The notes under the pieces are model-generated. The model was not told the DNA's origin. It did not search any database and saw only the letters and a list, made by a program, of their open reading frames with translations. A DNA stretch of 64,000 nt from a virus (lineage: Duplodnaviria > Heunggongvirae > Uroviricota > Caudoviricetes), in the IMG/VR virus record IMGVR_UViG_3300009537_004349. One strand, given 5' to 3'. The position numbers and the translations under genes are program-made. Every line of letters starts with the position of its first letter. Position 1 is the stretch's first letter. Shown here piece after piece: positions 31,836-53,322 of the stretch.

Positions 31836-32577
31836 CCTTTGTCACTGCTATTGACAGCTCCCAATGAACCGCCATACTCTTATCTTTCGTCACTACCGTC
31901 CAGCCATCACTTAGGATATCTACATCTGACGTGCCTAGAGTAAACATAGGTTCTAAGGCAAAGACCATTCCTTCTCGCAATCTAATATTCGGCTCTTGGA
32001 TATTAACCCAATTGAAGACATGCGGGTCTTCGTGCATCCTCTTGCCTATTCCGTGCCCACAAAAATTCACCAGATTCCCATACCCATGTTGCTTGGCCAC
32101 AGCATCAATAGCTGCCCCTATGTCGTGCAAGCGATTGCCAACATGCATCGCGTTTATTCCAGCAACTAAACTATCACGAGTGTGTTGTACCAGATTGCTA
32201 ACATGCGAAGACGGAGCATCTCCTACCACAAATGTCTTAGCAGAATCTCCTGCATATCCTTTATGGTATACACCAAAGTCTAGACTCACTATATCCCCGT
32301 TTTGAATTATTTTATCATCTCTGGGTATGCCATGGACAACCTCTTCGTTGACCGAAACACACAACACCTTCGGAAAGCCCCTATAGTTCTTAAAGGCTGA
32401 CTTAGCCCCATGAGATTTCAGCCGTTCCTCTGCTAACAAATCCAAATGAGCTGTCGTCATTCCTGGTTTTAGATGTTCGCCTACATGATTAAGGACATCA
32501 TGCACGATGCTATTGGCTTCGTGCATAAGTTCAATTTCTTTTGTAGACTTGAGATATGTGAGTCCATAGATTGACAT
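31798..32577 (-). CDS. map: Methionine aminopeptidase type I
   Basis: CVSVNEEVVHGIP, DFG, GDS, GHGIG..HEDP, LEPM, HWE: all five metal ligands present. Confidence 0.96.
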   Translation of the reverse strand: MSIYGLTYLKSTKEIELMHEANSIVHDVLNHVGEHLKPGMTTAHLDLLAEERLKSHGAKSAFKNYRGFPKVLCVSVNEEVVHGIPRDDKIIQNGDIVSLDFGVYHKGYAGDSAKTFVVGDAPSSHVSNLVQHTRDSLVAGINAMHVGNRLHDIGAAIDAVAKQHGYGNLVNFCGHGIGKRMHEDPHVFNWVNIQEPNIRLREGMVFALEPMFTLGTSDVDILSDGWTVVTKDKSMAVHWELSIAVTKDGPRVLGTETIS

Positions 32578-33554
32578 CAACGCCCCTTTGATAATGCTTC
32601 GATTCTATCCAAATAATTTTTGTATTCATCGAGCCATTTGTTTACTCTGACGTTCTTATGAATCATTAGCGAGAACAGTATGCTCTTCATATCTTCCATG
32701 GAGATATTATCTGCGCTTACATTTCTTTCCCTCTCAGCTAACGCTATCCTGCCTACCAATGACTCATAGCCCATATGTGTCCAGTATTTGGTATAGTGCA
32801 TCTTGTATTTATACAGATACTCAATAAACTCAAATCTAGTTACCGAGGGCAATTCTTCTAGGTCTTTCTTTGTAATAGAGACAGTAAAAGGCAACTTCTT
32901 ACAAAGGGTAGGGGACTTTGCCAAATCTTTAATGAGCCTCTTCCTTTTTCCTAAGTCGGACAAATCGTAATCTTTGTCATAGCGAAGATACGTAAAGAAC
33001 TTTGACTTTTTCACTATCTTCTTTATTTCGGGGTTGTCTATCCCACCAGGAATCTTTTTTACCAGCTCATTGAAGTTCTTTTTGTCCATAGAGCGATAGA
33101 AGCGCTTAAATAAAAGCACACCTCTAGCATCGTTGCTTGGTATTAACTTACAGCAACTGCGTATCAATCTATTTTTTACGCTGGAGTTAAATAGGTTATA
33201 ATTCGATAGAACCAAATCTACCACAGCAGACTTAGTTCCGTTCAACAGATAGGGTGTGCACTTCTCAATTACATCAACATAAAAGCTATTTAACTTCATC
33301 AGTGTTCCCCAATAGTTAGTTGGCGGACTGTTAAATACCTGGTGAAGTTGCTCCACCAAGGCCACGCTGATAAAATGCTTTAGTTCATTATATTTGAGAG
33401 TTGGGGGTTCTGCGTTCTCGATAATATCCAGAATCGCCTCAGCAGAACCCTTAAAATCGTCGGGGCAAGAACCGAGTTCTTGCATGAACGCCTTCGGGTC
33501 ACTAGATAGTTTCTTTATTCTAGTTATTCGAGACGTTCTATTTGTCATTCCCAA
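32577..33554 (-). CDS. Unannotated helical protein, paralog family member 1
   Basis: LEELPSVTRFEFIEYL...ISMEDMKSILFSLMIHKNVRVNKWLDEY motif shared with four other ORFs. Confidence 0.75.
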   Translation of the reverse strand: MGMTNRTSRITRIKKLSSDPKAFMQELGSCPDDFKGSAEAILDIIENAEPPTLKYNELKHFISVALVEQLHQVFNSPPTNYWGTLMKLNSFYVDVIEKCTPYLLNGTKSAVVDLVLSNYNLFNSSVKNRLIRSCCKLIPSNDARGVLLFKRFYRSMDKKNFNELVKKIPGGIDNPEIKKIVKKSKFFTYLRYDKDYDLSDLGKRKRLIKDLAKSPTLCKKLPFTVSITKKDLEELPSVTRFEFIEYLYKYKMHYTKYWTHMGYESLVGRIALAERERNVSADNISMEDMKSILFSLMIHKNVRVNKWLDEYKNYLDRIEALSKGR

Positions 33555-33735
33555 ATACCCTTAGTATTTCTACTTGAGACCATTCACCTTCGTTATGCTC
33601 TTCGCCCTGGATTTCAATTCCATCTATCTTAGCTAAATCATAGCTAATGTAATCCAAGAACTCATAAGTTTGGTTGCCGCGTCGCTTGCTCAGCTTAACT
33701 AATGCCAGTGCCATAACTTTCTCCTTTACGAACAC
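33538..33735 (-). CDS. Hypothetical protein
   Basis: 65-aa ORF. Confidence 0.45.
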   Translation of the reverse strand: MFVKEKVMALALVKLSKRRGNQTYEFLDYISYDLAKIDGIEIQGEEHNEGEWSQVEILRVFGNDK

Positions 33736-33750
33736 TTAAGTGGTTGTGGG

Positions 33751-34170
33751 TTAGAGCAATCCTTCTCTAACCAGAGTTTTAACCCAACGTCTAGCAAATC
33801 TATCACAGTATGCTTCGTCGTGGTATTGCTTTGATTGCCACCCATACCTCTGGGCAGCATATAAATGCGCGATTTCATGCAGAAGTGTATCTGCTATCTC
33901 GCTATCATCCATTCTATTTAAAGGCTTTGCCTTTTCGACATCTTGTCCTTTCAAGTTGGTTGAGATGAATGTCATACTTAATGGCATCATCACTGTTTTT
34001 GTGTCAGGGTCACATACAGCATATAGGTTATCACCTTTGACAATCTTGATTTTCATATTCTGAGATAAACTTTCCTCATCTTCAAAAAAAGCTAGTTTAG
34101 GACGCGGGTATGTACCCGGCAATCTCTCCTTTATGATATTGTAAATATCCATTACTCGTTTTAAATTCAT
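33751..34170 (-). CDS. HExxH zincin-like (SprT/IrrE-type) protein
   Basis: TLLHEIAHL and later E..CDRFA. Confidence 0.65.
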   Translation of the reverse strand: MNLKRVMDIYNIIKERLPGTYPRPKLAFFEDEESLSQNMKIKIVKGDNLYAVCDPDTKTVMMPLSMTFISTNLKGQDVEKAKPLNRMDDSEIADTLLHEIAHLYAAQRYGWQSKQYHDEAYCDRFARRWVKTLVREGLL

Positions 34171-34179
34171 GTTAAAAAC

Positions 34180-34766
34180 CTGCCCGTGTGCTTCGTATAG
34201 TCTTACTTGATATCTAAATCAATGTACTTTGGTTCTGGCTCGGGCGCCTCTTCTACAGGTGGCACCACAACACGAAGCAAGCCATCTTCATATGAGACTT
34301 CTGCTTTTTGCAGGTCCCACTGCGGCAAGACTTCTACTGTCTTTTTAAATGACCTTCGAGCCAGTGAACGGCCATTTGTTTTCTCATCATCTTCTTTCGT
34401 AGCAGAGATGATGATTTGATTGTTTTCTGGGGAAACTTGGATACTCAACTGATCTTTACTATACCCAGCTAAAGCAAGCTCCAGAGTTAATTGCTTATCT
34501 TCTACATAGATATCGCCTCTAGGAAATCCTCTAAGGCTCAGGTTATTTGAGGCGGAATCGAAGAAGTCTAGTCCCTCGAAAAACCGGTCCAGATTAAAGA
34601 ATCTGTCGAAATCCTCAAAAACATCAGTTGGAAATGCAGTCGGGAGAAGCCTCGAACTGCGGAAAGGTCTTAACATCAGTTTTGTCATTTTAATTCCTCC
34701 TTTAAGCAAATTAAAAGCTTAATAATTACACCCATTTAAGGCATGTAAACTGAAGCACACGGGCAG
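34180..34766. repeat. 15-bp perfect inverted repeat bracketing hsp20
   Basis: CTGCCCGTGTGCTTC (34180-34194) and GAAGCACACGGGCAG (34752-34766), both intergenic. Confidence 0.93.
34203..34688 (-). CDS. Small heat shock protein (Hsp20/IbpA family)
   Basis: FPRGDI..LELALAGYSKDQLSI..LARRSFKK..AEVSYEDGLLRVVVP; true start likely ATG 34688 after AGGAGG. Confidence 0.93.
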   Translation of the reverse strand: MTKLMLRPFRSSRLLPTAFPTDVFEDFDRFFNLDRFFEGLDFFDSASNNLSLRGFPRGDIYVEDKQLTLELALAGYSKDQLSIQVSPENNQIIISATKEDDEKTNGRSLARRSFKKTVEVLPQWDLQKAEVSYEDGLLRVVVPPVEEAPEPEPKYIDLDIK

Positions 34767-34794
34767 TCCATGGGAACCTACCCACGCATCTGTT

Positions 34795-34823
34795 ATTATG
34801 ACGGCGGGCAATTCGTCCGTCAA
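34795..34823 (-). promoter_or_regulatory. sigma70-like promoter of hsp20 with overlapping palindrome
   Basis: TTGACG-N17-CATAAT; TGACGG-N12-CCGTCA dyad at 34799-34822. Confidence 0.7.
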
Positions 34824-34836
34824 CAGAAAATCGGTC

Positions 34837-34864
34837 TTGACAAAATCATTTTTTGGCATATAAA
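34837..34864 (+). promoter_or_regulatory. sigma70-like promoter facing antisense
   Basis: TTGACA-N16-TATAAA on plus strand, back-to-back with the hsp20 promoter; no plus-strand gene downstream. Confidence 0.45.
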
Positions 34865-34906
34865 AGCTTCGCGACAACATTCCCGAAGGAAAACCACCAT
34901 TTAGGA

Positions 34907-35593
34907 TTAGTAGTATAGCTTAAATGCTTCTATTTCCCACTCATGTAATTCTATGTGTTTAAACACAGAATCAATTGAAAAATACATAAGATGCCAGGGC
35001 ACCTCGCTGTGGGCAAATCCTAATGTGTGGCCTATCTCATGCCTCATGACCGCTCCTATAAGAGCGTTGTCATATTTATCTAGTACGTCTTTAAATATGG
35101 CTATATCTGCAGATTTAATACAGCCATCCTCCTGGTCATTATATATGGTTACCGCCAATGCTGGCCCAGGTTCTTTTCTCTCTATCATGAAGACGCCCAC
35201 TATTCCCGGTACAGGAACGGGCTTACCGCTCTCCGTCAAAAGCTCCGTAGTCCCTCCGTGGTAGAAGAGCCTTTTATGCTTTTGTCCATGCTTCTCAGCA
35301 ATTTCGTTCCAATAATCGAACGCATCTCTTATAGGTTTTTGTTTCTCAGGAGGTATCTTTTCGCTGATAAGAAAAAATAGGGGCGGGTTACACTGCTTCG
35401 CTCTTAACTCTGTCTCTGGTATTTCTCTGTATAATTTAACTGGTTCTCTTGGTAATAAGTAACATCCTAAAATTCCTGTAATAGTAAAAACTGCTGCTAT
35501 TGTAGGAACCAATATCCAAGACATCCATCTAAGTTTCACTCTTTGCGTCATAGTTCTTAGCCTCAAATGTAAAATCTGGCAGAGGGTCGTCAC
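34907..35593 (-). CDS. Matrixin (M10-like) metalloprotease with N-terminal TM/signal segment
   Basis: HEIGHTLGFAH extended zinc motif, LMY Met-turn; start may be downstream of the called one. Confidence 0.88.
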   Translation of the reverse strand: MTTLCQILHLRLRTMTQRVKLRWMSWILVPTIAAVFTITGILGCYLLPREPVKLYREIPETELRAKQCNPPLFFLISEKIPPEKQKPIRDAFDYWNEIAEKHGQKHKRLFYHGGTTELLTESGKPVPVPGIVGVFMIERKEPGPALAVTIYNDQEDGCIKSADIAIFKDVLDKYDNALIGAVMRHEIGHTLGFAHSEVPWHLMYFSIDSVFKHIELHEWEIEAFKLYY

Positions 35594-35939
35594 CTAAATC
35601 TGGATTGCAATAAATGCAACTATCCTTACATCTGCCCTGACTATGACGCATCTTGTTCACTAAATTATACAGTATGTCTAAATTTTCTGACCCTCTTTCT
35701 TCATTAAGAAATCTAGAAATATGCGCGTCCGCTAAATCTTTCTTTATGCTATCAGGACTTTCATACAAAGAGAAGAATGTATTTGCTTCTACCAGGTCTT
35801 GAAAGTCTTTCGATATATCTGCAAACTCTAATGTGGCAACGTGTTCATCCATTTGAACTAAGTCCAAACGAATAAAAAACATATCTTCTTCTCCATCAAC
35901 TTCGCAGGACAGAGTAATTTCTTTGTTTACGATTGCCAT
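35529..35939 (-). CDS. Hypothetical acidic protein
   Basis: 136-aa ORF with GAGG SD. Confidence 0.6.
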   Translation of the reverse strand: MAIVNKEITLSCEVDGEEDMFFIRLDLVQMDEHVATLEFADISKDFQDLVEANTFFSLYESPDSIKKDLADAHISRFLNEERGSENLDILYNLVNKMRHSQGRCKDSCIYCNPDLGDDPLPDFTFEAKNYDAKSET

Positions 35940-37491: not shown

Positions 37492-37492
37492 C

Positions 37493-39425: not shown

Positions 39426-39798
39426 TCCCCTTTAGCACTCTCAGTACTCGTTCGTCAATCATCTCCAAGCTTTCTTCATCCTCAGCCTTTTTTGTTAGTG
39501 CATCTATAGCTGCGCGCACAAACTTATCAAAGTTGCTGCTCTTCTCATAGATACCGATGCGCTCATGGGAGATAGTAATATCTTCTCCTAGAAAACCATC
39601 AGATTCTAGCACATCTAATTCTGAAGTCTCATCAAGAATTTCTCTAACATCCCAGGACATATCGTGCCTCAAATATGCTATGATATCATTCTTGTTCTCT
39701 CCCTTGTTGAAGAAGTGCACCACTACTAAATCCAGTGACGGATTATAGTAGCTAGCAAAAGCTAAATTGGAAATTTTCTGTACCAAATCAAGGTCCAT
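39361..39798 (-). CDS. Hypothetical acidic protein
   Basis: 145-aa ORF. Confidence 0.6.
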   Translation of the reverse strand: MDLDLVQKISNLAFASYYNPSLDLVVVHFFNKGENKNDIIAYLRHDMSWDVREILDETSELDVLESDGFLGEDITISHERIGIYEKSSNFDKFVRAAIDALTKKAEDEESLEMIDERVLRVLKGNAYDSGKEAGLFVSKTTKHLN

Positions 39799-40642
39799 TC
39801 TGTACCTCTCTAAGTTGTTTGATTGCGGAATTGTATCCTCTCATTACCAATGTGTCATACGCCATAGTATTGAGGGCTGAAATATCTCCAACGGGTGGGG
39901 ATATCAGAACTATCTGCCTATCGGGATATCTGGATTGACAGATGCTAATTCCTCGTTGGGACTTATCTCCTAAAAGCATATTAGTAATCTGTGATCCAAT
40001 ATTCCACATACTGGATTGCCCTATTCCTTTTACATATGGCGAATATATGTCAGATACGATAACTACTTCAGCGCCTAAATCCATAGCTTCGTTTACAGAC
40101 AGTGGTCTTTTTATCTCGCCATCTACATAGAATTCACCATTTATCTCAACTGGCCTAAACAAAACAGGCACACAGCAGCTTGCTGTGATAGCTTTAGAGA
40201 TAGATATATGGTCATTCTTTTTTGGACCAATCAGCATACCCTCATGTCTATCTAGATTAGTCACAGATACATACGTGGGAATGGGCAATTCATTAAAGTT
40301 GTTTACTGGCAAGTTACTTGCCAAGAACCTCTCAGCATAATCCAAATCAAAAATTCCGCTCTTGATTTTTGTGCTAAAAAAGTTCCTAAATGTCATCATG
40401 CGTTTCCAGCCAAAAGCAGGAAAATCATATTTGCGCTTCCAAAATGGACGGAAGTTATCTACAATTCTATCCGTATCTTTGTATATGCTATACAGCACAA
40501 CCCCTATAGCGCCCGCAGATGTTCCTAACATCAGGTCAAATTTGATTCCCATTTTTTCGCAGGCACGAATAACTCCTGCGTGGGCAATAGCTCTACCGCC
40601 GCCACCTGTAGCGACGAGAGCCACTTTTTTATTCTCGAACAT
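39788..40642 (-). CDS. Patatin-like phospholipase
   Basis: GGGGRAIAH oxyanion loop, GTSAG nucleophile, ASCCVPVLF, YVDG. Confidence 0.92.
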   Translation of the reverse strand: MFENKKVALVATGGGGRAIAHAGVIRACEKMGIKFDLMLGTSAGAIGVVLYSIYKDTDRIVDNFRPFWKRKYDFPAFGWKRMMTFRNFFSTKIKSGIFDLDYAERFLASNLPVNNFNELPIPTYVSVTNLDRHEGMLIGPKKNDHISISKAITASCCVPVLFRPVEINGEFYVDGEIKRPLSVNEAMDLGAEVVIVSDIYSPYVKGIGQSSMWNIGSQITNMLLGDKSQRGISICQSRYPDRQIVLISPPVGDISALNTMAYDTLVMRGYNSAIKQLREVQNGP

Positions 40643-40653: not shown

Positions 40654-41085
40654 TTAAGGGCTTTTTGGAATTTTGTTATACAAGTCTCCACCCTTTACAA
40701 CTAAAGTATAGTGACCTCCGTATGTCACGGCGCACATTTCTACGCTGGGGTCAATGACTCCTGCCTTACCTACTAAGCCAGACATAATTAGGTTCTTAAC
40801 TGCCCAATCGGGCAACCAGCACGCAGCCTTTATAGCTTTGTTTTGAAACGGAAAAATGCTTTCTGTGAGTACAGTGCCTCCGTATCCATTGTTAGTTCCA
40901 ACCAAGTCAGACAATACGAAAGGACCAGAGAACATATTATCTACTTCAAATGCTACACCACTGGGTTTGTTTTTTTGATACACTGATGCTAAGCGTACCC
41001 CAACCGTAGCACCATCTATAAGCTGTTGGCGGTCACACACAACATAAACTTTGTCAGGTATGACCGCCTTAACAGGAATATACAT
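40654..41085 (-). CDS. Hypothetical protein
   Basis: 1-bp overlap with upstream gene. Confidence 0.65.
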   Translation of the reverse strand: MYIPVKAVIPDKVYVVCDRQQLIDGATVGVRLASVYQKNKPSGVAFEVDNMFSGPFVLSDLVGTNNGYGGTVLTESIFPFQNKAIKAACWLPDWAVKNLIMSGLVGKAGVIDPSVEMCAVTYGGHYTLVVKGGDLYNKIPKSP

Positions 41086-41957
41086 TACGGGGTTTCCTCT
41101 TCGTCCTCTTCAACCTTAGGGGGTTCACTTTCAGTGATGTCCTTATAGGTTTGATACAGCTTTTGAACCAAGTCGTTGTGCTCGATACATCCGGCAAACA
41201 AAACTAGATTAAGCTCATCCTCGGTTGGAGATGGATCAAAGACTTGAATTTGTTTGAACTTGGGAAATCTGTTTAGATAGACTTCCAAAGTCTTTAGTCT
41301 TTCCATAGGCTTCAGCTCACTAAACAAACTAAAGTCTACTATCTCAAATACCCTATCAAAATAGCTGAGCTTGGATAGTGCCTTGAGGGCAATAACCATT
41401 TGATGCTTGGTAATCAACTTGCGATTGCCATAGTCATTAATGCATAGAGCCAGGGCTCGCACCTCTGGTCTATCATCTGCCAGCACTCTCTGAAGGAATG
41501 GGGCAAAATGCTTATTGCTCACCTTATTTAGCACCGACAATGCCTCAGAAGCAACCACTGGATTCTGATTTAGAACATGGTCCATTACCTGATTAAGGCT
41601 GTCCACATCGTTATCATCTGCAAGGTTATATAGAAACTTATGAGTAAGCTTGTCTTTCCCCTCGTCCTTGAGTCGAGCCTTGTTAGCAGCATTAACCCAA
41701 TTGAACAGCAACGGATGCTTCTCTTGTGGAAACTTCTCAAATATTTCTTCAGGGGTGTACTCGCCCAACACACTATTAACATGCTCTCGCAGGTCCTTGA
41801 TGCTGGATGGCTGACTTTGGACACACTCGAAGAACATATCCAGCGTGTCCAGATTGGTGATTCTACGCCTTAGTGCGTTCACTGCCAACTCACCTGGCAG
41901 TCGATAACATACTTCTTCCCAGGGCATGTCATCAAATGCTTGGTCAAAAATACTCAT
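41085..41957 (-). CDS. Unannotated helical protein, paralog family member 2
   Basis: IALKALSKL...[18 protein letters not shown]...[28 protein letters not shown]. Confidence 0.75.
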
Positions 41958-42412
41958 TTCTCTTTCCCTTGTTGTTGCGGTTTAGGATTGTACGGTTTCT
42001 TCTTGAAATTGTTGTTGAACTTTTTGCCCTTGTAGCCACCAGAAGGCTTATTGCCAGTCTTATTATACGGCCTATTGTTAGGCTTAGAGTTAGAGGATGG
42101 CCCTCTGGAATCTCTAGACTGATAATTGTTATTCTGTGGACGAGGCTTTAGCGGAATCTTCTGGGTCTTATCCTTATTCCACTTAAAGTTCTGATTCGTT
42201 CCTGCTCTAGCCTTACGTGCTGCGAGCTTTTTGTCGCGCTTCAGAGCCCTCTTTCGAGCTGCTGCTTGCTTCTTCTTTCTCTTTACACTTGGTTTTTCAT
42301 AGAATTCATGCTTCTTAAGGTCAGCCAGTACGCCCGATTTTTCTACTGCGCGTTTGAACCTCTTTAAAAGAGACTCTATGTTCTCATTAGGTCTAGCTTT
42401 TACAAATGCCAT
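41954..42412 (-). CDS. rpsU: Ribosomal protein bS21 with long basic low-complexity C-terminal extension
   Basis: [45 protein letters not shown] is the bS21 signature; 152 aa versus ~60-70 typical. Confidence 0.93.
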
Positions 42413-42487: not shown

Positions 42488-42778
42488 TTATTCGGAGTCT
42501 GATTCTGAAACTTCTGCTGTCTCAGTGGGACTAGCAACCGCTGCGGCATCTGCCTCTCGCTGTTGCTGAGCCAATGCCTCACGGCTTTCCTGAGTAGCAG
42601 TCAACAGATTCACAAACTCGCTAAATTGCGAACCAGGAATCACGGTAGATGCGCCACTGCCCTTACCACGTCGGGTACGGAATGTAACATTACCTTCTCC
42701 ATCTACGTCCAGCGTATCTCGCACGATGTCGATTACGCCTTGCTCTTGCTCAGGCTCCTTACTAAAAACACTTGCCAT
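42488..42778 (-). CDS. Hypothetical protein
   Basis: Strong GGAGGTG SD and own terminator. Confidence 0.75.
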   Translation of the reverse strand: MASVFSKEPEQEQGVIDIVRDTLDVDGEGNVTFRTRRGKGSGASTVIPGSQFSEFVNLLTATQESREALAQQQREADAAAVASPTETAEVSESDSE

Positions 42779-42789: not shown

Positions 42790-43656
42790 TTACTTTTTTA
42801 GTGTGTTGTTGACAAGATTGTCAAACTCTTTGATTAGTTCAACTACTTGGTCGTTGTACTTCAATGAGCACGGAAACAGAAAGGTTTCTACTTCCTCATG
42901 ACTGGGAATATCAGTAAAAGGATTATTGTCTTTCTGTTTGTTATAGCTGTTGAGCATTCCCAACAGTTGACGCATAGCGTCTATTCTTGCTTTTGGACCC
43001 AAGTGTCCAAGCATTTTGAAATCTACTTTTGATTTTACAGATCTTTGTTTTGATAGCTTAGATAATGCCTTAAGCCCCTTCAAAGTATATTTTTCATTTA
43101 CATCATCTCTCGATAATAGGTAAACACTCACAGCTGGAGTAGATTTACCTAGAGCCTTGCAGGCGTCTTCAAGATAATCCTTAGATATGTGTTGAAACAA
43201 TGTTTCTACAGCCTTAAGATTATCTGTGCTTCTCCGACTCTTGTAAATATTGGTAAGTCTTGAAAGTGCTGGTACTACCAGAGACGAGTCACTCGGTATG
43301 GATTCCGCAATCCAGACACACTTATTTGTGTCGTCTTGTAGCCAAGCAACAGTGAGTTTTTCTTTTAGGTCATCATCGAGCCATTGTTTGTATGCCTCGA
43401 ATCTCCACCATTCTATATTATCACTATTGCCCAGATGGCTATCAAGAATAGAGTTTACTCTCTTTCTTGTTTCAGGTAATACCCTGTGCAAATCCCCATA
43501 ACACATGTAGTAGTATGCTTCAGCCAGTGATTCAACATCAACAAACTTCTTTGCTATATGAGGATCTAATGCTGCGCATCTCTCCTGGTCACCGGGATTT
43601 AACTCCGACAGCAAATCAAAGATGTTAGCATCTTCATAGTTTGTTTCACCTGACAT
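42790..43656 (-). CDS. Unannotated helical protein, paralog family member 3
   Basis: KGLKALSKL...MLGHLGPKARIDAMRQLL...PSHEEVETFLFPCSLKYNDQVVELIKEF. Confidence 0.75.
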   Translation of the reverse strand: MSGETNYEDANIFDLLSELNPGDQERCAALDPHIAKKFVDVESLAEAYYYMCYGDLHRVLPETRKRVNSILDSHLGNSDNIEWWRFEAYKQWLDDDLKEKLTVAWLQDDTNKCVWIAESIPSDSSLVVPALSRLTNIYKSRRSTDNLKAVETLFQHISKDYLEDACKALGKSTPAVSVYLLSRDDVNEKYTLKGLKALSKLSKQRSVKSKVDFKMLGHLGPKARIDAMRQLLGMLNSYNKQKDNNPFTDIPSHEEVETFLFPCSLKYNDQVVELIKEFDNLVNNTLKK

Positions 43657-44828
43657 TAGTACTCTCTCTTCTCATTAGGGATTAACACACGTTGGCCCCA
43701 CTTAGGAAGATAGTTCATACCATCTTCTTCTGTGCAGCACCACAAAACTGGATAGCTCGGAGCCTTTTCTGGAAAGCTACCATACGCATCTGTAAGGTAG
43801 ATAAGCAGTTCTGGCTGCATATTATCCTTCTCAACTCTCTCAAACACAGGCCGCATGTCAGTACCACCACCACCGGCCATCTTAATCTGGCTCAAGAAAT
43901 CACCAAACTTGTTAATCTTCACCACTTCTTGAACCCTGCAGTCACAACTTATTGCCGTAACCTCAGAAACTAAGTGGCGAATCTTATTGATTTCACCAGC
44001 AAACTGCTCTAGGCAGTAACGACCAATAGAACCAGAGGTGTCAATGGCCACAATCACCTTGCCGATGATATAGTTACGCAAGTCTGGCAGGTAAATATCC
44101 TGACCTAGATAACGCTTGTTGACACGAGTGTAGGAATAATCGTCCTTAGAGAGAGCTTGTCCAACATACTTGTGGAAAATCCTCTCCCACTTAACCTTAT
44201 TCTTACGCAACTTATCAATCCAGCGCTTCAGACCAGCAGGCACATTGCCCTTGCCCTTTGTGTTTTTGGTCATCTCATAAGCAGTTACAATCTTGTCTTC
44301 CATATCATCCCAGCCGCCTTCATCAGAAGCCTCGATGTGCATATCGAAAGTCTTAAACTTTGATACATCCTTTGGAAGGTCATCATAAATCTGCTCAGCA
44401 TTCATATCAGAATACTTCTGGTCAATAAGCAGTCCATCAGGAAGCTGATAGCCCATCTGCTTGATTTCCCAGTTGATTGCAAAGTCAGCTGCTACGTTCC
44501 AGCGCTTATGCTCCCTATTCAGCCTACGCTTTGGAGTACAGTGCATATAGATGCAGTGACTAATCTCATGCAGGAGAACGCCGAATACCTCTTCGTCATT
44601 CAACGACATCACGAACTCAGGGTTATAGAAAACCCTCGCTCCATCTGTTGCCATAGTGGGAATAACTGATTCAGGAATGAAGTCAGTCATAGAAAGTAGA
44701 ACGCCATAGAAGGGCTGCTGTAGCAAGAGCCTCGCACGACTGGTACCCATTCGTTCTTTAGCGTTATGTAATACTGTTGGGTCAACCTCTTTATCCCCTA
44801 CAGGCAGTCTATCTCGAAAATCACTCAT
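43656..44828 (-). CDS. DUF2201-type metallopeptidase-like domain plus vWA domain protein
   Basis: TMATDG, LLHEISH, WNVAADFAIN; vWA MIDAS DTSGS, GGGGTD, YLTDAYG; likely start MSDFRD at 44828. Confidence 0.9.
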   Translation of the reverse strand: MSDFRDRLPVGDKEVDPTVLHNAKERMGTSRARLLLQQPFYGVLLSMTDFIPESVIPTMATDGARVFYNPEFVMSLNDEEVFGVLLHEISHCIYMHCTPKRRLNREHKRWNVAADFAINWEIKQMGYQLPDGLLIDQKYSDMNAEQIYDDLPKDVSKFKTFDMHIEASDEGGWDDMEDKIVTAYEMTKNTKGKGNVPAGLKRWIDKLRKNKVKWERIFHKYVGQALSKDDYSYTRVNKRYLGQDIYLPDLRNYIIGKVIVAIDTSGSIGRYCLEQFAGEINKIRHLVSEVTAISCDCRVQEVVKINKFGDFLSQIKMAGGGGTDMRPVFERVEKDNMQPELLIYLTDAYGSFPEKAPSYPVLWCCTEEDGMNYLPKWGQRVLIPNEKREY

Positions 44829-44832
44829 TGTT

Positions 44833-45789
44833 TTATCCTCTGTCTTGTTCAAAGATTTGTGGCACACAGTACCGTTTGTCAAAAGTTTTTAGTAAGCGCT
44901 CTACTCTATTATAGTATCTAAGGAAACAACTAAACAAAAGCTCTTTCATTTCTTCTTCAGACTTTATGTCATCAAAGTTAAGAGATGTTTTGTTCTCTCC
45001 CCAATACATTATTGACTCTAATATGTTAAGTCTAGTAATAGATGGAATGTCCTTCCATACTTTCTTACCCAAGGGCACTGTTATTTTTGGCACATTCTTT
45101 TTCCTGGTACCTATATTTCTTAGCGCCCTAACTACATATCTGTGTGGTGTATTTGGATTCTGAAGAACGTGAAAGGTTACTTCCTTATTTTTCTTTTGTT
45201 CGCCCTTGAATATTGGAGTCATAAAAGTATCAATCATTTCTTCTGGCATGGTAGCCAACAGGTGCCCTTGAGCACCCCATGAAACGCATGAACCTTTCAT
45301 AACTCTTTCGGCTATTCCCATAGCCAAATCATTTTTATTGTCGTAAAGCCATTTGTAGTCCAATGATGTATCGTTAACCACACTAGATTCGCCTTGGGCA
45401 TACTTGCTAAGCTCTATATCCCTACTCTTGTCGTCTAACCAATCCCATACAACAAAGTCACTTCGATTTGGAAGATAATACTCTCCCTTGCACGCCTCTA
45501 CCATAGCATCACAGTTATTACGAATGTGCGTATTATACGCAGCATATAATTCTGGATATTGAACTAACTGTTTATCTAGTTCTTTGAATCTGGTAAAGAC
45601 CTGTGCAACTTCCCTATGGGATATTTGATTTATGCGGTTAACAAGAATCTTTTCAATTCTTACATCCGCGTCGAGAAACTCAACTACTTTGTTTACATCT
45701 ATACTCGATAGTTGTTCTTCTGTCAAGGTACAAATGTCTAATCCAAAGAGTTCTCCCCAGCTACTTTTAAGCTCTTTCTTGTATACCAT
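44833..45789 (-). CDS. Unannotated helical protein, paralog family member 4
   Basis: VRALRNI...WKDIPSITRLNILESI...KSEEEMKELLFSCFLRYYNRVERLLKTF. Confidence 0.75.
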   Translation of the reverse strand: MVYKKELKSSWGELFGLDICTLTEEQLSSIDVNKVVEFLDADVRIEKILVNRINQISHREVAQVFTRFKELDKQLVQYPELYAAYNTHIRNNCDAMVEACKGEYYLPNRSDFVVWDWLDDKSRDIELSKYAQGESSVVNDTSLDYKWLYDNKNDLAMGIAERVMKGSCVSWGAQGHLLATMPEEMIDTFMTPIFKGEQKKNKEVTFHVLQNPNTPHRYVVRALRNIGTRKKNVPKITVPLGKKVWKDIPSITRLNILESIMYWGENKTSLNFDDIKSEEEMKELLFSCFLRYYNRVERLLKTFDKRYCVPQIFEQDRG

Positions 45790-45874: not shown

Positions 45875-46969
45875 TTATCGGACAATCTTCATGATTTCCT
45901 TGACCCTGGTCTTGAAGGCTGGGTGCTTTGACATAGCCTCCATGGTCTTCAGAGTCTGTTGCTTCAGGAAGATAACCCTAAGCTCAGGAGAAAGCAGTCC
46001 CAAGAAGTTTGCGATATGATCCTCAGACTTCTTGATACCGTTCTTTCTCTTACGGAGTGCGAAGGCAACCGCCAAAGCAACAGCGTACTTGAACGACTGC
46101 TCCTTGCTCTCCCAAGGCTGTGGCATATGACCACTGAAGATTGCTTCTGGGTCAACGTTACGGTAAACATTAGACCATACCACGAACTCAGAGGCAGGAC
46201 CCTTACCAACCGCTGCGGTTAGCAGCTCCTTCTGGTCCTTTTGCTGCTTGGTTGCCTTGATGAGGTTAGATGCGATAACCCAAGAACGTGGGCTTGGGAA
46301 AGCGTGGTCATCGGTCTGCTTGTACAGCAACTCCTGCTTGAAGTGCAGGAAGCCAATGACGTCATCACAGACATCATTCTCACGAGCCCAGGCAGCCCAG
46401 GACTCAACATCAGGCTCGATGTCCAAGTGAATCATACGATTCGCAAGAGCCGAACCGAGAGGTGCGGAGAAAGCCCCGTCCTCTTCTCGGTTACCAGCGG
46501 CTACGATAGCCCAGTCATCAGGCAGCTCGTAGGTGCCAACCATACGGTCGAGAACCAACTGCAGCGATGCATTCTTTACGGACACAGGCGCTTTCTCAAT
46601 CTCATCGAGGAAGACAACGCCAGGACCTTCTGGGCAACAACCCACTGGAACAACCACAGTTTCGGTAACAGTGTTGCCATCGGCATCCACCTTGGTCACC
46701 TCACGAGTGGTCTCAGTAGCAGCCCGCTCTGGCCAGAAGCCAGGCAGGAACCAATCTGCTCGATTAGTGTCCCTATTGGGCATCGGAACGCCACGCAAAT
46801 CGGTGGGCTCCAACTGAGCCAGACGCAAATCCAGGTTCTTACGACCCAGCTCTGCAGAAATCTGGTGGATTAGAGAACTCTTGCCAATACCGGGAGGTCC
46901 CCAGAGCATGACAGGAGTGTTCATACGAATCGAATTCTTTACAATCTTGTAAGCTTCAGATAGCTTCAT
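45875..46969 (-). CDS. MoxR-like AAA+ ATPase
   Basis: GPPGIGKS Walker A, VFLDE Walker B, AAGNREED, SALANRMIH, FPSPRSW. Confidence 0.93.
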   Translation of the reverse strand: MKLSEAYKIVKNSIRMNTPVMLWGPPGIGKSSLIHQISAELGRKNLDLRLAQLEPTDLRGVPMPNRDTNRADWFLPGFWPERAATETTREVTKVDADGNTVTETVVVPVGCCPEGPGVVFLDEIEKAPVSVKNASLQLVLDRMVGTYELPDDWAIVAAGNREEDGAFSAPLGSALANRMIHLDIEPDVESWAAWARENDVCDDVIGFLHFKQELLYKQTDDHAFPSPRSWVIASNLIKATKQQKDQKELLTAAVGKGPASEFVVWSNVYRNVDPEAIFSGHMPQPWESKEQSFKYAVALAVAFALRKRKNGIKKSEDHIANFLGLLSPELRVIFLKQQTLKTMEAMSKHPAFKTRVKEIMKIVR

Positions 46970-46972
46970 AAC

Positions 46973-47167: not shown

Positions 47168-47175
47168 TTCTACTC

Positions 47176-47430: not shown

Positions 47431-47434
47431 GTTT

Positions 47435-47842: not shown

Positions 47843-47843
47843 A

Positions 47844-48218: not shown

Positions 48219-49527
48219 CTTCTAACTCCTGTTCCTTTGCTAATTTGATTTGTTCACTCAACAAACATTCATGCATTTCTTTATCGCCTAGTTCAGTACG
48301 GTCTGCATTAAATCTTGGGAATTGTAATGCTCCTGTACCAGGCTGAGCTGAATCGTATTCGATTCTCCATACTCTTGGATAACTGGCATTGGTATAAAAC
48401 TCTCTCAGCTCATCTGAGAGACCACCACCACATTTTCCAAGAAATACTTCATTTCCTTCTTCGTCTAGTTGGTAACAGTATACACTGCCCAACTTTCCAT
48501 AATTTTTCCCTTTACCAACTAAGCCTATTCCATTCTCTGGGTCATATCTAACAATGAAATCATCTTCATATGTAGGCTTACTCTTCCATAATAGGTTCGG
48601 CCTGTATGGCTTGCCGTTGAAAGTAAAAGCAGCATCACTATCCATAATACCTTCGCTGTCCCATACAACCAATCCTTCCATGCCTCTTTCTTCCATAGAC
48701 TCTAGAGCTTCTGTGTGGAGTTTATCCACGACCTCGATAGCTTCTATATATTCAGAGTTACATAGTTCTGTCAACTCTTTTACTTTCTTTAATCTATCTT
48801 TGAAGGGGGTTGAGGTTAGGAGACATTCTTCATTGTAAAAGGCTACATCAAAAATATAGTATAGTGCCTTACCCCATTTATCTTGTCTCTCTATTGACTT
48901 CTCGGGGTCACACCTGCATATCTTGCTGGCTTTATTTAGACTGTCTCTGCCATTATCATCTAGCAGAACTATCTCCCCTAAAAGAATGATTCCCTTGGGT
49001 AGATTGCTGAAAGCCTCAACTAAATGAGGGTAGTTGGCTGTGACAACATCCATGCGCCTGGAATAAACTTCTGTTCCAAAGGCATCTGATGTTCGAACGA
49101 TGTGCATCATTCCATTACGTTTAACAGTATACACCGCTCGCTTGCTTTTTTCAAGCGTTTTTATCTTTTTTTCGTCGATTGAATTTTTTGGCTTGTAAAA
49201 ACAAAGCTCTTTAGGGAGGGGTTGTGAAAAGTCAATGCTTTGCTCTTGATGCACCGACTCAAGTGTTTCGGAATATCCTTCCTTCTTTTTCTTTACTATC
49301 TTTCTTTCAAGCTCTAAATTAGCTTGCTGGAGAGAAGAAGTCTCATTAGCTTTACCTTCATTAACTCCCTTGGAGATAACATCGATAGTAATTTGCTTCT
49401 TCCCATCGAGCAGGCCCCACTCATAATGAATCTCGGGGTAACCAGAATCTCCCTGGTCAACTACCTGGCCTGCCCAAACCTTAATCTTACCAGTCTTGGC
49501 TTTCTGATAAAGTGTCGTCTTGCTCAT
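48211..49527 (-). CDS. lig: ATP-dependent DNA ligase with N-terminal WGR-like domain
   Basis: Motif I VKRNG, GEIV, YIFDV, EGLVV, WKSK, OB-fold LGKCGGGLSDE, LQFPRF; N-terminal KIKVW..YEWGLLDGKKQ. Confidence 0.85.
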   Translation of the reverse strand: MSKTTLYQKAKTGKIKVWAGQVVDQGDSGYPEIHYEWGLLDGKKQITIDVISKGVNEGKANETSSLQQANLELERKIVKKKKEGYSETLESVHQEQSIDFSQPLPKELCFYKPKNSIDEKKIKTLEKSKRAVYTVKRNGMMHIVRTSDAFGTEVYSRRMDVVTANYPHLVEAFSNLPKGIILLGEIVLLDDNGRDSLNKASKICRCDPEKSIERQDKWGKALYYIFDVAFYNEECLLTSTPFKDRLKKVKELTELCNSEYIEAIEVVDKLHTEALESMEERGMEGLVVWDSEGIMDSDAAFTFNGKPYRPNLLWKSKPTYEDDFIVRYDPENGIGLVGKGKNYGKLGSVYCYQLDEEGNEVFLGKCGGGLSDELREFYTNASYPRVWRIEYDSAQPGTGALQFPRFNADRTELGDKEMHECLLSEQIKLAKEQELEDE

Positions 49528-49930
49528 CTATACCACTCATTCTGTTGACTAACCATAGTCTCTTTGATTCTTTCATTGCCTCTAAGGTCTCTTTATTCTC
49601 TTCTAATCTCTGCTCAGAATACTTAATAGCATCTTGTGCTTTCTCAAAATCTTTATCAGTCAGATGTTCCTTGCAGTACATACCTGGCCCTGGACAAACA
49701 TGATTACATGTTTCCTTGTACAAAGACTCTCGGTGAATACAGCCGAATCCCTTGAATGCAAAGAAGTAATCTATCTCTTTCTCGCCTATATCTCGCTTTT
49801 GATATTCATATGTTGCGCCGCATGAAGTACATTTTGCACCATTTTCTAAGCGCCCTACGTTTATCTTGCCGTCACATCTCAAACAATTTGTTTGTGGCAT
49901 GTGTATAGTTCCTGTGATTTTAAGAGTCAA
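49487..49930 (-). CDS. Cys-rich Zn-binding protein with coiled coil
   Basis: CLRC..CTSC..C..CPGPGMYCKEH. Confidence 0.6.
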   Translation of the reverse strand: MTLKITGTIHMPQTNCLRCDGKINVGRLENGAKCTSCGATYEYQKRDIGEKEIDYFFAFKGFGCIHRESLYKETCNHVCPGPGMYCKEHLTDKDFEKAQDAIKYSEQRLEENKETLEAMKESKRLWLVNRMSGIDEQDDTLSESQDW

Positions 49931-49936
49931 TTTCCG

Positions 49937-50332
49937 TTACCTCGGCTTAAATAGATTGTTGCCGAGAGCTGCTAGTTCATATCTTGCCGCATTTGGTTCT
50001 GCTGCATCGTGTTCTATGATTCTTCTTGCTATATCATCAATTTTTGACATAGATTTTTCTAGTCTAGATGCTGCAGGAGATAGTTTTCTCAATAACTTGT
50101 GGTACAAGAATTGCTTCCAACCAGGCTCCTCGTTCATAGAGGCACTGGCTTTCTGATAAGCCTCTAGTTCTTGATTTAGTTCCTCTTGCAAAAGACCTTT
50201 CTTTTCTTCCCACTTTCTTCGTTCGTCCAGAAATGCACTAAGGATTAGTGCCTGTCGACCACCCACTCCTGCCTGCACAATGGCATCAAGAGGGTTTACT
50301 GGTCCAGCTTTTTGTACATGTTCATCAGACAC
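49937..50332 (-). CDS. Hypothetical coiled-coil protein
   Basis: 131-aa ORF. Confidence 0.6.
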   Translation of the reverse strand: MSDEHVQKAGPVNPLDAIVQAGVGGRQALILSAFLDERRKWEEKKGLLQEELNQELEAYQKASASMNEEPGWKQFLYHKLLRKLSPAASRLEKSMSKIDDIARRIIEHDAAEPNAARYELAALGNNLFKPR

Positions 50333-50853
50333 TTATACACCTCGTAAGTTCGACGACAGTCAACTAATGCTGAGTGTGCGCCTATGTTCGATACACCAAA
50401 ATGTTCACATAAATGACCCAAGCCTAAGCCAGGAATCTCTGTTTTACTTACTATAGGCCACGCTATTGATAATGTATCAAGCTTTCGTCTGTGATTCCAG
50501 TTAGGCTTGATGTCAAACTCCTTCATGGCCCTTGTGATAAATCTAATATCAAAGTCTATGTTTTGACCTACTATAGCACAGTCCTTTACTAAGGAGTTAT
50601 ACTTTATCAATGCTGACTTTAACCTACCAGTGTAAGCAGCAGCGTTATCTTTGTAACCGTTAATCTTCAGCGCATCTGCATCAGCGGTTTCGATGTGAGT
50701 GGGAGATATTTTCTTCTCCCACTCTTCTATCACCGAATCAGTCACTGGGTCATATACCAAACAAGCTATCTCAATTATTTCATGCTTAGATTCATCTAAG
50801 CCGGTTGTTTCAGTATCTGTAAATGCTAACTTAAGTTCACTAAGTTTACCCAT
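50296..50853 (-). CDS. DEDDh 3'-5' exonuclease (DnaQ-like)
   Basis: DTETTGL, GQNIDFD, HSALVD. Confidence 0.92.
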   Translation of the reverse strand: MGKLSELKLAFTDTETTGLDESKHEIIEIACLVYDPVTDSVIEEWEKKISPTHIETADADALKINGYKDNAAAYTGRLKSALIKYNSLVKDCAIVGQNIDFDIRFITRAMKEFDIKPNWNHRRKLDTLSIAWPIVSKTEIPGLGLGHLCEHFGVSNIGAHSALVDCRRTYEVYKCLMNMYKKLDQ

Positions 50854-51385
50854 TCTTATCTACCCAATCTACAAAATGGTCCCAGCTACTTATCCTTTCA
50901 AATTTGCCCCGGGCCGCTGCGTTATATGGCTGGTGAAACAACAGCGGTTTTGTATCCGGGTGTAGTCCTTTCAGGTTCTTAGGGTCATCTTCTAATAGAC
51001 AATCGCCTCGAACCCTGAACTTTTCCTTTGTCAAAACCAAAGGAGGATATCTCCAGACGCGACCAAAGTAATACTTCAGCCACTCTCTTTTCTCATGACC
51101 ACTAGATGGGCAGTTTGTCCCATTACTTACAAAGCAAATATCGTGACCAAGTTTATGCAGCTTCTTAATGGATTCTACAGCACCATCAATGGGCTTAAGC
51201 CCTCTAATGAAACCCGGGGAATCCTTTATGCTTTTAAGAAGCCAGTTATTTTTTACGTACTTACCAGTCTGATTCGTTTTTATATCAGACAGTTTAACAC
51301 CTTCATTGGTATGATGGTTGTATTGAGCCAACAACTCCGAAGTGAAATCGGCACACACACCATCCATGTCTAGCAAAATTATCAT
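50846..51385 (-). CDS. 5'(3')-deoxyribonucleotidase (HAD, NT5C-like)
   Basis: DMDGVCAD, EKREWL, LLEDDPKN, QPYN. Confidence 0.9.
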   Translation of the reverse strand: MIILLDMDGVCADFTSELLAQYNHHTNEGVKLSDIKTNQTGKYVKNNWLLKSIKDSPGFIRGLKPIDGAVESIKKLHKLGHDICFVSNGTNCPSSGHEKREWLKYYFGRVWRYPPLVLTKEKFRVRGDCLLEDDPKNLKGLHPDTKPLLFHQPYNAAARGKFERISSWDHFVDWVDKNG

Positions 51386-51395
51386 AACTTCTCCT

Positions 51396-51424
51396 ATTAT
51401 ACCGACACCAAAGAAGGTTGTAAA
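51396..51424 (-). promoter_or_regulatory. sigma70-like promoter
   Basis: TTTACA-N17-TATAAT. Confidence 0.75.
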
Positions 51425-51445
51425 GTGATATTTTACTCAGTCAAA

Positions 51446-52501
51446 TCAGCTGGTTATATAGTCCCAGACGACCTTTACACATAAACTATCTAGAAAGTTT
51501 CTATCCGGCTTTTCTGGAAGCGGAGAGTTTTCAGCTATTGCCTTAATCTCTAACTCCATCGAATCTGCGTATTCTTCGATTTGCTCGTAAGTCCACGCAC
51601 CATTCCGAATAGCAAGCAGCTCTTCGTGGTCTGGCCTAAATACCTGCACCTTGCCAGTGGAAAGAATCTCTTTCCCCATTCTCATAAGCCTTACCAAATG
51701 AGATGCATGCTTGGTATCATAACCATACTTTTCTTCTAGCTCCGCCCTCTTTTTATTCCTAGAATGCTTCCATTGTGTATATGAGTCAAAATGACGCTTT
51801 GCGTTATTGTATGCCTGTTCTTTTTGCATTAGCTCCATCCAGGCATCGGAAGCGCCAGTAGCTTTCTGGATTTGAGAGAATGCCTCTTCGGGTATTCCCT
51901 TCTGCTGAATCGACCCAATCCAATTTGCTTTCTTAAGTTCCTCTTTTGTTTCATCAGAGAAGTTTAAATAATCAATTGTGTCTTCCAACAGATTAACCAG
52001 TATCCAGTGAAACGCTCCCTGGTCAGACTTGGACATTGCCCTTTTCTCAGGGAGTCCGTAGTCTTCTCGCTCAGGACGCTTCGCTGGTGGATTCAACAGC
52101 CACCCTCTTGCAGTTCGTATTCTTCTTAGTTGTGAAAAAGCATATCCTGTGTAAGTGTACTTTGCTTTTCTAGAAAGAAACTTTTCTCTATTATCCAAAA
52201 CCTGTTGAAACACAGGATGAACCTTTTGATGAAATCTTTCTTCTGTAAAGAGCAAATCCAACATATTAGGATTGCAATCACTGATTAGTTTGAAGGCTTT
52301 ACGAATATCGTACACTACAACGTCGTTAACCTTATCTTCAAACTGCTCAAAGTTTTTTAGGAACCCCAGATAATAAGAGAGTTCGTTGAGAGCAGCAATG
52401 CCTCTGATATCCAAATCACTTTCTGGGGTGTTGGTTCCATACGCAGTGGATCCTACTACCGTAGAATACAGGGTATGTTTATCTACAAACTCTTTGTCCA
52501 T
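51446..52501 (-). CDS. Pol-beta superfamily nucleotidyltransferase (RlaP/PF10127-like)
   Basis: GSTAYGTNTPESDLDIRG, CNPNMLDLLF, GYDTKHASHLVRL. Confidence 0.85.
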   Translation of the reverse strand: MDKEFVDKHTLYSTVVGSTAYGTNTPESDLDIRGIAALNELSYYLGFLKNFEQFEDKVNDVVVYDIRKAFKLISDCNPNMLDLLFTEERFHQKVHPVFQQVLDNREKFLSRKAKYTYTGYAFSQLRRIRTARGWLLNPPAKRPEREDYGLPEKRAMSKSDQGAFHWILVNLLEDTIDYLNFSDETKEELKKANWIGSIQQKGIPEEAFSQIQKATGASDAWMELMQKEQAYNNAKRHFDSYTQWKHSRNKKRAELEEKYGYDTKHASHLVRLMRMGKEILSTGKVQVFRPDHEELLAIRNGAWTYEQIEEYADSMELEIKAIAENSPLPEKPDRNFLDSLCVKVVWDYITS

Positions 52502-53322
52502 TATAGCTTCCTAAATGTGATGTTCTCCAATTTTGATTTGCAGAACATGCAAGTTGCCCAAATTAAAGCCTTTGCATTCCATGTGTGCTTGAAGTCTTCT
52601 TCTGCGTGAATTTTAGTACTGTTTAAGGTAAGACTATACTGACCGCATACAGCGCAATCATAGTCTATTGTAACCGTACTCTCTGTATCCAGCTTACTAA
52701 AATACTTATGAGCCTCACATACTGCCGAAACTCTATCCTTATGTCTCAATGACGAACCGAATAGCAGCGGCTCTATAGCATCGGCGTTTATGTTCTTGAA
52801 AATGTTATACCCGACATGTTTGTTATCTAACAATGCCTCTATTACCTTTAGCCTGGTTACTGTGGGCACTTTAAGTAGCGCCTCATATCGAGGAGTATAG
52901 TTGTTATGATACAAAGATGCAGGGCATGCAGAGTAAAAGGATAAACCTCTCAAGCCAGCCACTTCCTCTTCAATTGAGATTTTTGGAAAGCTTAATATCA
53001 TTCGGTGTAGTCGGCTGTTCTCACAGGACAACAACATGCTCTTTAGCTTATCTAGACCAAAATCAAGACAGAAGCTAAGCATCTTATCTACATATTCATC
53101 TCTACCAAAATCTCTACTACTTCCGTGCTTAATAAAAGCTTTGAACAGTCTTTCTCTTCTTTGATAGATTTCGCCATCCATTAGGCCGGTTATGGCATTT
53201 GTGTATGCCCAGCTATCTCCGTCTGCTGTCTCTACCTCTCTAAGCAGCGCCTCTTGCGAATGGATGTCTAACTTTTTCCAATCACGCAATTTATTACGCA
53301 AATCCCAACCGAACTTAGCCAT
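52501..53322 (-). CDS. Unannotated helical protein, paralog family member 5, with C-terminal CxxC pair
   Basis: AGLRGL...LLKVPTVTRLKVIEALL...NADAIEPLLFGSSLRHKDRVSAVCEAH; then CAVC..CMFC. Confidence 0.75.
   Translation of the reverse strand: MAKFGWDLRNKLRDWKKLDIHSQEALLREVETADGDSWAYTNAITGLMDGEIYQRRERLFKAFIKHGSSRDFGRDEYVDKMLSFCLDFGLDKLKSMLLSCENSRLHRMILSFPKISIEEEVAGLRGLSFYSACPASLYHNNYTPRYEALLKVPTVTRLKVIEALLDNKHVGYNIFKNINADAIEPLLFGSSLRHKDRVSAVCEAHKYFSKLDTESTVTIDYDCAVCGQYSLTLNSTKIHAEEDFKHTWNAKALIWATCMFCKSKLENITFRKL

Follow-up and report, generated by a model that had tools for sequence, protein, structure and literature searches.

What are the five unannotated genes that lie dispersed among the translation, RNA-repair and chaperone genes of an uncultured tailed phage, and what could their products do there? 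This question is raised by a 64-kb stretch of DNA (hereafter, the window) within the 291,701 bp contig of IMG/VR record IMGVR_UViG_3300009537_004349, a member of the Caudoviricetes. The size of the contig and its co-directional genes mark the source as a jumbo phage; in the region considered here all window genes run in one direction, with a G+C content of about 41%. The five open reading frames (ORFs), labelled A, B, C, D and E in coordinate order (Table 1), were singled out in an initial annotation as an unannotated paralog family, in which a constant C-terminal docking domain would be combined with variable N-terminal target-recognition domains, plausibly for host takeover or anti-defence. 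The coordinates then reported were confirmed, all five ORFs being open and located on the minus strand. The analysis described below bears out the family and replaces the two-domain architecture with a predicted continuous alpha-solenoid, for which a tentative role as partner-specific binding subunit is proposed.

Five ancient paralogs of one family

The relationship among the five proteins was first visible at the level of single sequences, since a phmmer comparison against all 238 window ORFs of at least 50 amino acids (aa) linked B with C (E-value 2e-8) and C with D (7e-7). When a hidden Markov model (HMM) of B, C and D was run over the same 238 ORFs, the next best matches were E (1.4e-5) and A (2.2e-4), with the following ORF at 0.31. 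Additionally, hhalign comparison of subfamily profiles gave probabilities of 92.8–99.5% for all ten pairs, and intermediate metagenomic sequences were found that match several paralogs each, as in the case of P0097, which matches D, C, E and A. The significance of these profile alignments indicates that A to E are true paralogs of one family, beyond chance. The description of the family as five-membered holds for the window, to which the paralog count refers, but is not general, as the relative L001 carries six copies, with a tandem duplicate of A before Map.

A search with the five-paralog profile against 1.84 billion representative proteins returned 266 representatives at an E-value of 0.001 or below, 151 of them at 1e-10 or below. 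Among the matches listed, members measure 75–410 aa, mostly 270–350 aa, and the longest carry no extra Pfam domain, so that no domain fusion was found among them. All homologs, including the 31 found for C, come from metagenome assemblies, some of them on contigs that measure 289 kb and 468 kb. On the other hand, tblastn of C, the only paralog searched in this way, gave no match in 50,697 cultured phage records, megablast of the 40–48 kb stretch against cultured phages returned nothing, and an IMG/VR scan with the C alignment produced 84 pattern matches, none of which was confirmed. The family was found only in uncultured large phages.

In a tree of 144 members, the paralogs fell into five groups, every one of them set apart by a single branch, with support of 97–100% for A, B, C and E and 83% for D. 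Subfamily A was monophyletic over its 23 rows, and the label changes along the tree amounted to four, the minimum possible, compared with a mean of 75 after shuffling. Since the five groups are monophyletic, the duplications predate the radiation of this phage clade, each copy having been kept afterwards. Therefore, A to E are ancient paralogs that had split into five orthologous groups before the clade radiated. Copy number is nearly constant among the relatives, although not fixed: besides the additional copy of A in L001, C is absent in L004 and L014, and in the segment of L008 E is absent together with Thg1 and RlaP. When the window was compared with L001, the solenoids were only 24–39% identical, whereas every annotated neighbour showed 44–64% identity, the rate of solenoid evolution being roughly double that of the annotated genes around them.

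One continuous alpha-solenoid

The family fold is predicted to be a HEAT/armadillo-like alpha-solenoid of about 290 residues that forms one continuous superhelix. The AlphaFold2 model of C, based on a 29-sequence alignment, shows 16 helices in one continuous stack (predicted local distance difference test score, pLDDT, 89.3; predicted template-modelling score, pTM, 0.81), and the AlphaFold model of E is of similar quality (pLDDT 85.2, pTM 0.80). Structure searches with the whole models returned only generic alpha-solenoids, a fold typical of binding scaffolds and adaptors, represented by designed armadillo proteins, importins, adaptins, PUF domains and PP2A-A. In the case of C, the best Foldseek match in the PDB had an E-value of 7e-3, the others being worse, while the Atlas structure search gave look-alikes at template-modelling (TM) scores of 0.55–0.66 and the search of Swiss-Prot models again yielded generic alpha-solenoids. 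The look-alikes of D were importin/transportin-like, and those of A were likewise generic solenoids. Among viral proteins, the nearest structural look-alike was MGF_505-2R of African swine fever virus (ASFV), with a weak likeness (E-value 7.9e-3, TM 0.26).

By sequence, no match to a characterised family was found for any of the paralogs at the thresholds of Pfam, PHROGs, NCBIfam and PADLOC, and a family-profile search of PDB sequences returned nothing meaningful. In PADLOC-DB, which covers defence and anti-defence systems, none of the five paralogs had a match at an E-value of 0.001 or below, C showing one chance-level match (0.0087, 14.6 bits). The Pfam HEAT models (PF02985, PF13646 and PF03130) did not reach the gathering threshold, with only one of 138 members at an E-value of 0.05 or below; B matched HEAT_2 below threshold over residues 103–170 (19.2 bits against a cut-off of 27.7). 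The names given to the homologs in their source databases were limited to "hypothetical protein" and one stray "predicted peroxiredoxin". The structural and Pfam matches included no DUF3150 cluster, no profile test having been aimed at DUF3150. Overall, the nearest known fold class is that of the HEAT/armadillo alpha-solenoids, which includes importin-beta/alpha, adaptins, PP2A-A, PUF and HEAT_2 (PF13646).

The N-terminal halves, which had seemed unrelated by eye, are homologous over most of the protein length. The profile alignments between paralogs span 110–258 columns: B and C align over 258 columns (B 7–277, C 6–284), C and D over 245–248 (C 27–285, D 38–310) and A and C over 231, and the family HMM covers its positions 51–304 on A. 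Together with the single continuous solenoid seen in the AlphaFold models, these whole-length alignments contradict the combination of a constant C-terminal docking domain with variable N-terminal domains. The shared C-terminal signature itself is real, although it does not delimit a separate docking domain, and its motifs lie in the best-conserved stretch of the family, residues 181–280 of C, where column information reaches 1.5–1.9 bits compared with about 1.0 elsewhere (138 members). Over the same members, R224 of C is 99% conserved and F261 98%, and among the most conserved positions of the signature L, F, V, P and I prevail, in addition to one arginine (R224). Judging from these residue types, the signature probably corresponds to the structural core of the last helices, and it may additionally form a common surface. 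Its pattern, in which a proline at the helix start is followed by an arginine and a [DN]xxV helix, is reminiscent of the canonical HEAT repeat consensus, a resemblance and nothing further.

Paralog E departs from this plan, as it lacks the first ~95 profile positions and has gained a C-terminal zinc ribbon. The four cysteines of the ribbon are invariant in all ten representatives of the E subfamily, and the model of E places beta-hairpins at residues 215–235 and 264–272. This ribbon superposes on stand-alone phage proteins of about 62 aa with a root-mean-square deviation of 2.1 Å over 48 residues.

A conserved gene neighbourhood

The names initially given to the neighbouring genes (Map, S21, vWA, AAA, RlaP and Thg1) were confirmed by Pfam (Table 1), and the solenoid genes were found to keep their places beside them in distant relatives. 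The most constant cassette has the order MoxR – D – vWA – (C) – small ORF – S21 – B. The gene between MoxR and vWA is D, without exception, in L001, L008, L014 and the ERR10503201 contig as well as in the window, and in L004, where the contig ends before any MoxR gene, D is found directly upstream of vWA; D thus keeps its place in all six contexts of this phage clade that were examined. C comes after vWA in L001 and the ERR10503201 contig, as it does in the window, and also in L008, there behind an inserted 380-aa ORF, and B is found directly after S21 in the window, L001, L008, L014 and L015, with one ORF between them in L004.

The remaining two paralogs are located elsewhere. In the RNA-repair run, whose order is RNA ligase – 298-aa ORF – Thg1 – E – RlaP, E is the gene directly before RlaP in L001, L009, L012 and the ERR10503201 contig as well as in the window, the segment being missing in L008; in L012, E still adjoins RlaP although two small ORFs part it from Thg1. 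Finally, A overlaps the Map start in the window, L001 and L013, but it is not beside Map in L016, and the ERR10503201 contig has no A-sized gene upstream of Map.

The short overlaps between the solenoid genes and their neighbours had also been reported, and they were found: 4 bp between the A stop and the Map start, 4 bp between B and the S21 stop, 1 bp between the C start and the vWA stop, and 1 bp between E and each of Thg1 and RlaP. D does not overlap vWA. The program-called vWA ORF (43656–44882, minus strand) takes TTG 44882 as its start and extends 50 nt into D, while the likely true start is ATG 44828, which lies behind GAGGA, 4 nt after the D stop, and yields a protein of ortholog length (390 aa). 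Of the 80 minus-strand junctions in the window, 20 show an overlap of 1 or 4 bp, and because such overlaps are so common they are no special mark of the solenoid family.

Putative function and alternative explanations

The paralogs are best read, with a probability of roughly 0.45, as non-catalytic binding subunits, each adapted to a partner or client of its own among its conserved neighbours. A binding role is favoured because the proteins show no catalytic motifs and adopt a scaffold fold, and partner specialisation is supported because the adjacencies are kept among relatives whose solenoids are only 24–39% identical. In MoxR-vWA systems, it is the vWA protein that connects the ATPase with a client. 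D, and C where present, would represent a third, client-selecting part of this machine, whereas B would act with S21 and A with Map, both at the ribosome, and E would be either a helper of RlaP or a binder of its RNA substrate. RlaP extends damaged RNA 3' ends by one or two nucleotides (bioRxiv 10.64898/2025.12.29.696909). The adaptor idea of the initial annotation survives in this form, since the alpha-solenoid fold is typical of binding scaffolds and the flanking of vWA by D and C beside MoxR is kept in distant relatives, but without the domain architecture on which it had been built.

The MoxR and vWA genes with which D and C are associated form a known pair. The vWA protein retains intact HExxH and DxSxS (metal-ion-dependent adhesion site) motifs, has 410 homologs, and has relatives in 720 cultured-phage records. 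In jumbo phages, the MoxR and peptidase-vWA pair has been described as a chaperone and co-chaperone and proposed to act in virion assembly (PMC7824862), and the solenoid family is not mentioned in that work. The likeness to MoxR-vWA systems, namely CbbQ-CbbO, NorQ-NorD, RavA-ViaA and the jumbo-phage pair (PMC7824862), lies in an extra component, here represented by D and C flanking vWA beside MoxR. On the other hand, three of the five paralogs lie elsewhere, beside S21, RlaP and Map, and, compared with the described jumbo-phage pair, the solenoids are a novelty that is absent beside the pair in phage G and in an N4-like phage. In fact, the family HMM found no member in the MoxR/vWA neighbourhoods of Bacillus phage G and of the N4-like Acinetobacter phage nACB1. 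Since both phages carry the MoxR/DUF2201 pair with no member nearby, the solenoids are a clade-specific addition.

Several observations weigh against partner-specific binding subunits. Phage G and the N4-like phage run the pair without solenoids, which are therefore not a general part of the machine. The partners are assigned from gene order alone, in a genome that forms a long co-directional block with many short overlaps, and phage gene order is also conserved for reasons besides physical interaction. The neighbourhood is functionally mixed, with a DNA ligase, a PIF1 helicase, NT5C, ADK and a patatin among its members, and adjacency is not universal, given the absence of C in L004 and L014 and the location of A away from Map in L016 and the ERR10503201 contig. 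Additionally, evolution at about twice the rate of the neighbours also fits proteins that track changing host targets. A single complex prediction of the vWA protein with Mg and D, run without controls, gave "no answer" (score 0.00) and carries no weight either way.

The host-directed role first suggested, in which each paralog would bind a different host target for takeover or counter-defence, is the main alternative, but appears rather unlikely. It would agree with a family found only in phage-like metagenomic contigs, with the presence of several paralogs per genome and some change in their number (the tandem A of L001, the missing C of L004 and L014), with the lower identity of the solenoids than of their neighbours within the same phage pair (24–39% versus 44–64%), and, weakly, with MGF_505-2R as nearest viral look-alike. 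However, arms-race families usually show lineage-specific bursts, whereas here the five groups are stable and monophyletic and have kept their syntenic positions in deeply diverged relatives. No evidence ties the family to takeover or anti-defence, PADLOC giving no match, and the zinc ribbon of E together with its tight link to RlaP points towards RNA-repair enzymes that belong to the phage itself. Fast evolution leaves a host-directed role open, although it is also usual for solenoid scaffolds.

It is more improbable that the paralogs bind each other through their conserved C-terminal helices to build one scaffold, used for example in virion assembly with the MoxR-vWA chaperone. The retention of five groups together is the pattern expected of non-redundant subunits, the strongest shared conservation is concentrated in one stretch, and a role in virion assembly has been proposed for the MoxR and peptidase-vWA pair (PMC7824862), but single members can be lost, as C in L004 and L014, or can disappear along with adjacent genes, as E does together with Thg1 and RlaP in the L008 segment, and the genes are scattered among enzyme genes instead of lying in a structural module. 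A long shot is a phage-built translation-takeover platform, in which the solenoids would be tethers that dock S21, Map, RlaP/Thg1 and MoxR-vWA onto one hub, most plausibly the host ribosome, through a shared C-terminal surface.

A further lead came from the best AlphaFold DB cluster match of the C model, a 300-aa protein automatically named "TROVE domain-containing protein", which aligns over its full length (E-value 4.1e-5, TM 0.44, 19% identity). Ro60 consists of a HEAT-repeat (TROVE) ring fused to a vWA domain and acts in RNA quality control. The locus resembles Ro60/Rsr in having a helical-repeat protein near vWA and RNA-repair genes, in addition to this one look-alike, but the vWA protein here is a DUF2201 protein with a metallopeptidase domain, which belongs to another family, and the profile tests fail. 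The Pfam TROVE model (PF05731) matched none of the 138 family members at an E-value of 0.05 or below, and when the family profile was compared by hhalign with 33 genuine TROVE proteins, a narrow set seeded from Bacillus phage G gp540 (57–63% identity), the probability was 0.2% and the E-value 0.31. Likewise, Ro60/Rsr was listed in no fold search (Foldseek against the PDB, an exhaustive comparison with 48,161 chains and Swiss-Prot models), and no Ro60 was found by the family-profile search of PDB sequences. Membership in TROVE/Ro60 was consequently rejected on the Pfam scan, the PDB profile search, hhalign and the fold searches, with room left for a very remote link given the narrow TROVE alignment. 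Therefore, a split Ro60, in which the solenoid would be a diverged stand-alone TROVE RNA-binding ring working with a separate vWA gene in RNA quality control, is the least credible explanation, in spite of the Ro60 architecture, of the nearby RNA-repair genes (RlaP, Thg1 and RNA ligase) and of the ROT/TROVE proteins present in some jumbo phages (PMC7824862), its sole support being the name of one automatically annotated entry.

The protein used as seed, gp540 of Bacillus phage G (L006, 715–2388), is a Ro60-like "RNA-binding protein" of 543–557 aa that scores 20.9 bits on Pfam TROVE. Its close homologs, 57–63% identical, carry TROVE, and gp540 itself is a true TROVE protein of a phage, with no relation to the solenoid family.

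Comparison with other viral repeat families

The fold as such is an ordinary one, and large viruses are already known to carry multi-paralog repeat families. The poxvirus ankyrin and ASFV MGF 360/505 families resemble the present one in having several diverged, fast-evolving repeat-scaffold paralogs per genome. In those families, copy number is strongly variable and the genes cluster near the genome ends, whereas here five stable orthologous groups are interleaved with enzyme genes. No sequence relationship was found between those families and the solenoid family, and the structural likeness of MGF_505-2R is weak. What is new is the sequence family itself, its five fixed subtypes and their interleaving with MoxR-vWA, S21, RlaP and Map, for which no description was found in the libraries or literature searched. 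The result is a defined family of 266 clusters, described in none of the searched databases, with five conserved subtypes and an ordinary fold.

Translation, RNA-repair and chaperone genes are numerous in huge phages, and the solenoid subtypes are tied by gene order to representatives of each, namely MoxR-vWA, S21, RlaP/Thg1 and Map. If the solenoids are specificity or tethering subunits, they would offer a handle on what the widespread phage MoxR and peptidase-vWA pair acts on, as well as on the deployment of phage S21 and of the RNA-repair enzymes. If they are instead host-directed binders, they would be a phage counterpart of the multigene families of repeat proteins that giant eukaryotic viruses carry.

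Features of the locus

The coordinates of the paralogs and of the neighbouring genes are collected in Table 1. The start of A is probably ATG 33548, two codons inside the called ORF, which gives a protein of 323 aa; the Atlas record begins at residue 3.

Table 1. Solenoid paralogs, their notable segments and the annotated neighbours, in window coordinates.
Feature	Coordinates (strand)	Length	Remarks
Map, methionine aminopeptidase, M24	31798..32580 (-)	260 aa	Pfam PF00557, 2.3e-48
Paralog A	32577..33554 (-)	325 aa	From TTG; pI 9.5; open ORF with translation
Paralog B	41085..41957 (-)	290 aa	pI 4.9
Phage ribosomal protein S21	41954..42412 (-)	152 aa	Pfam PF01165, 2.1e-20; domain at residues 4-56
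Paralog C	42790..43656 (-)	288 aa	
Best-conserved family stretch	42817..43116 (-)		On C residues 181-280
Metallopeptidase-vWA	43656..44828 (-)	390 aa	Pfam DUF2201_N and DUF2201, 3.2e-34 and 2.5e-26
Paralog D	44833..45789 (-)	318 aa	Between MoxR ATPase gene and peptidase-vWA gene
MoxR-type AAA+ ATPase	45875..46969 (-)	364 aa	Pfam AAA, AAA_5, bpMoxR
RlaP nucleotidyltransferase	51446..52501 (-)	351 aa	Pfam PF10127, 6.9e-21
Paralog E	52501..53322 (-)	273 aa	pI 8.3; shortened solenoid with C-terminal zinc ribbon
Zinc-ribbon tail of E	52504..52683 (-)		Residues ~214-273; CxxC...CxxC
Thg1-type 3'-5' nucleotidyltransferase	53322..54089 (-)	255 aa	Pfam Thg1, 4.9e-30; Thg1C, 1.8e-8
RNA ligase	55344..56012 (-)		Head of RNA-repair run; Pfam PF09414, 2.4e-31

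The wider block in which these genes lie encodes RNA-repair proteins (RNA ligase, Thg1 and RlaP), nucleotide and DNA enzymes (NT5C, RNase T, DNA ligase, ADK and PIF1 helicase), chaperones and proteases (MoxR, vWA, HSP20, an M10-like peptidase and an SprT-like protein) and translation factors (S21 and Map). Upstream of A (33751–35593, minus strand), the SprT-like gene, which is a sub-threshold match, HSP20 and the M10-like metallopeptidase form a protein-quality-control run, and a patatin-like phospholipase gene (39788–40642, minus strand) is located two genes downstream of B.

The S21 protein has a C-terminal extension of about 95 residues beyond its Pfam domain, and the S21 proteins of the relatives range from 93 to 151 aa. 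Between C and S21, a 96-aa ORF (42488–42778, minus strand) is 47% identical to L001 10914–11201 and has no Pfam, NCBIfam or PADLOC match. ORFs of 93–114 aa occur at the same spot or beside S21 in L004, L008 and L014, and the 96-aa ORF may belong to the MoxR-vWA-S21 cassette. In the RNA-repair run, the 298-aa ORF between RNA ligase and Thg1 (54092–54988, minus strand) is also without Pfam, NCBIfam or PADLOC match and is not a solenoid member.

The 380-aa ORF inserted between vWA and C is found at 11338–12480 in L007 and in the 289-kb relative L008; it shows faint DUF723, DUF4379 and CapR matches and looks like a mobile endonuclease-type insertion. At about 20300–21182 of the same contigs, of 105 kb and 289 kb, a Cas12f1-like_TNB (TnpB-like) gene lies at the locus edge. 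Finally, L012 encodes an eIF-1a/IF1-like protein (PF01176) at 661–882, a few genes upstream of its RNA ligase – Thg1 – E – RlaP run.

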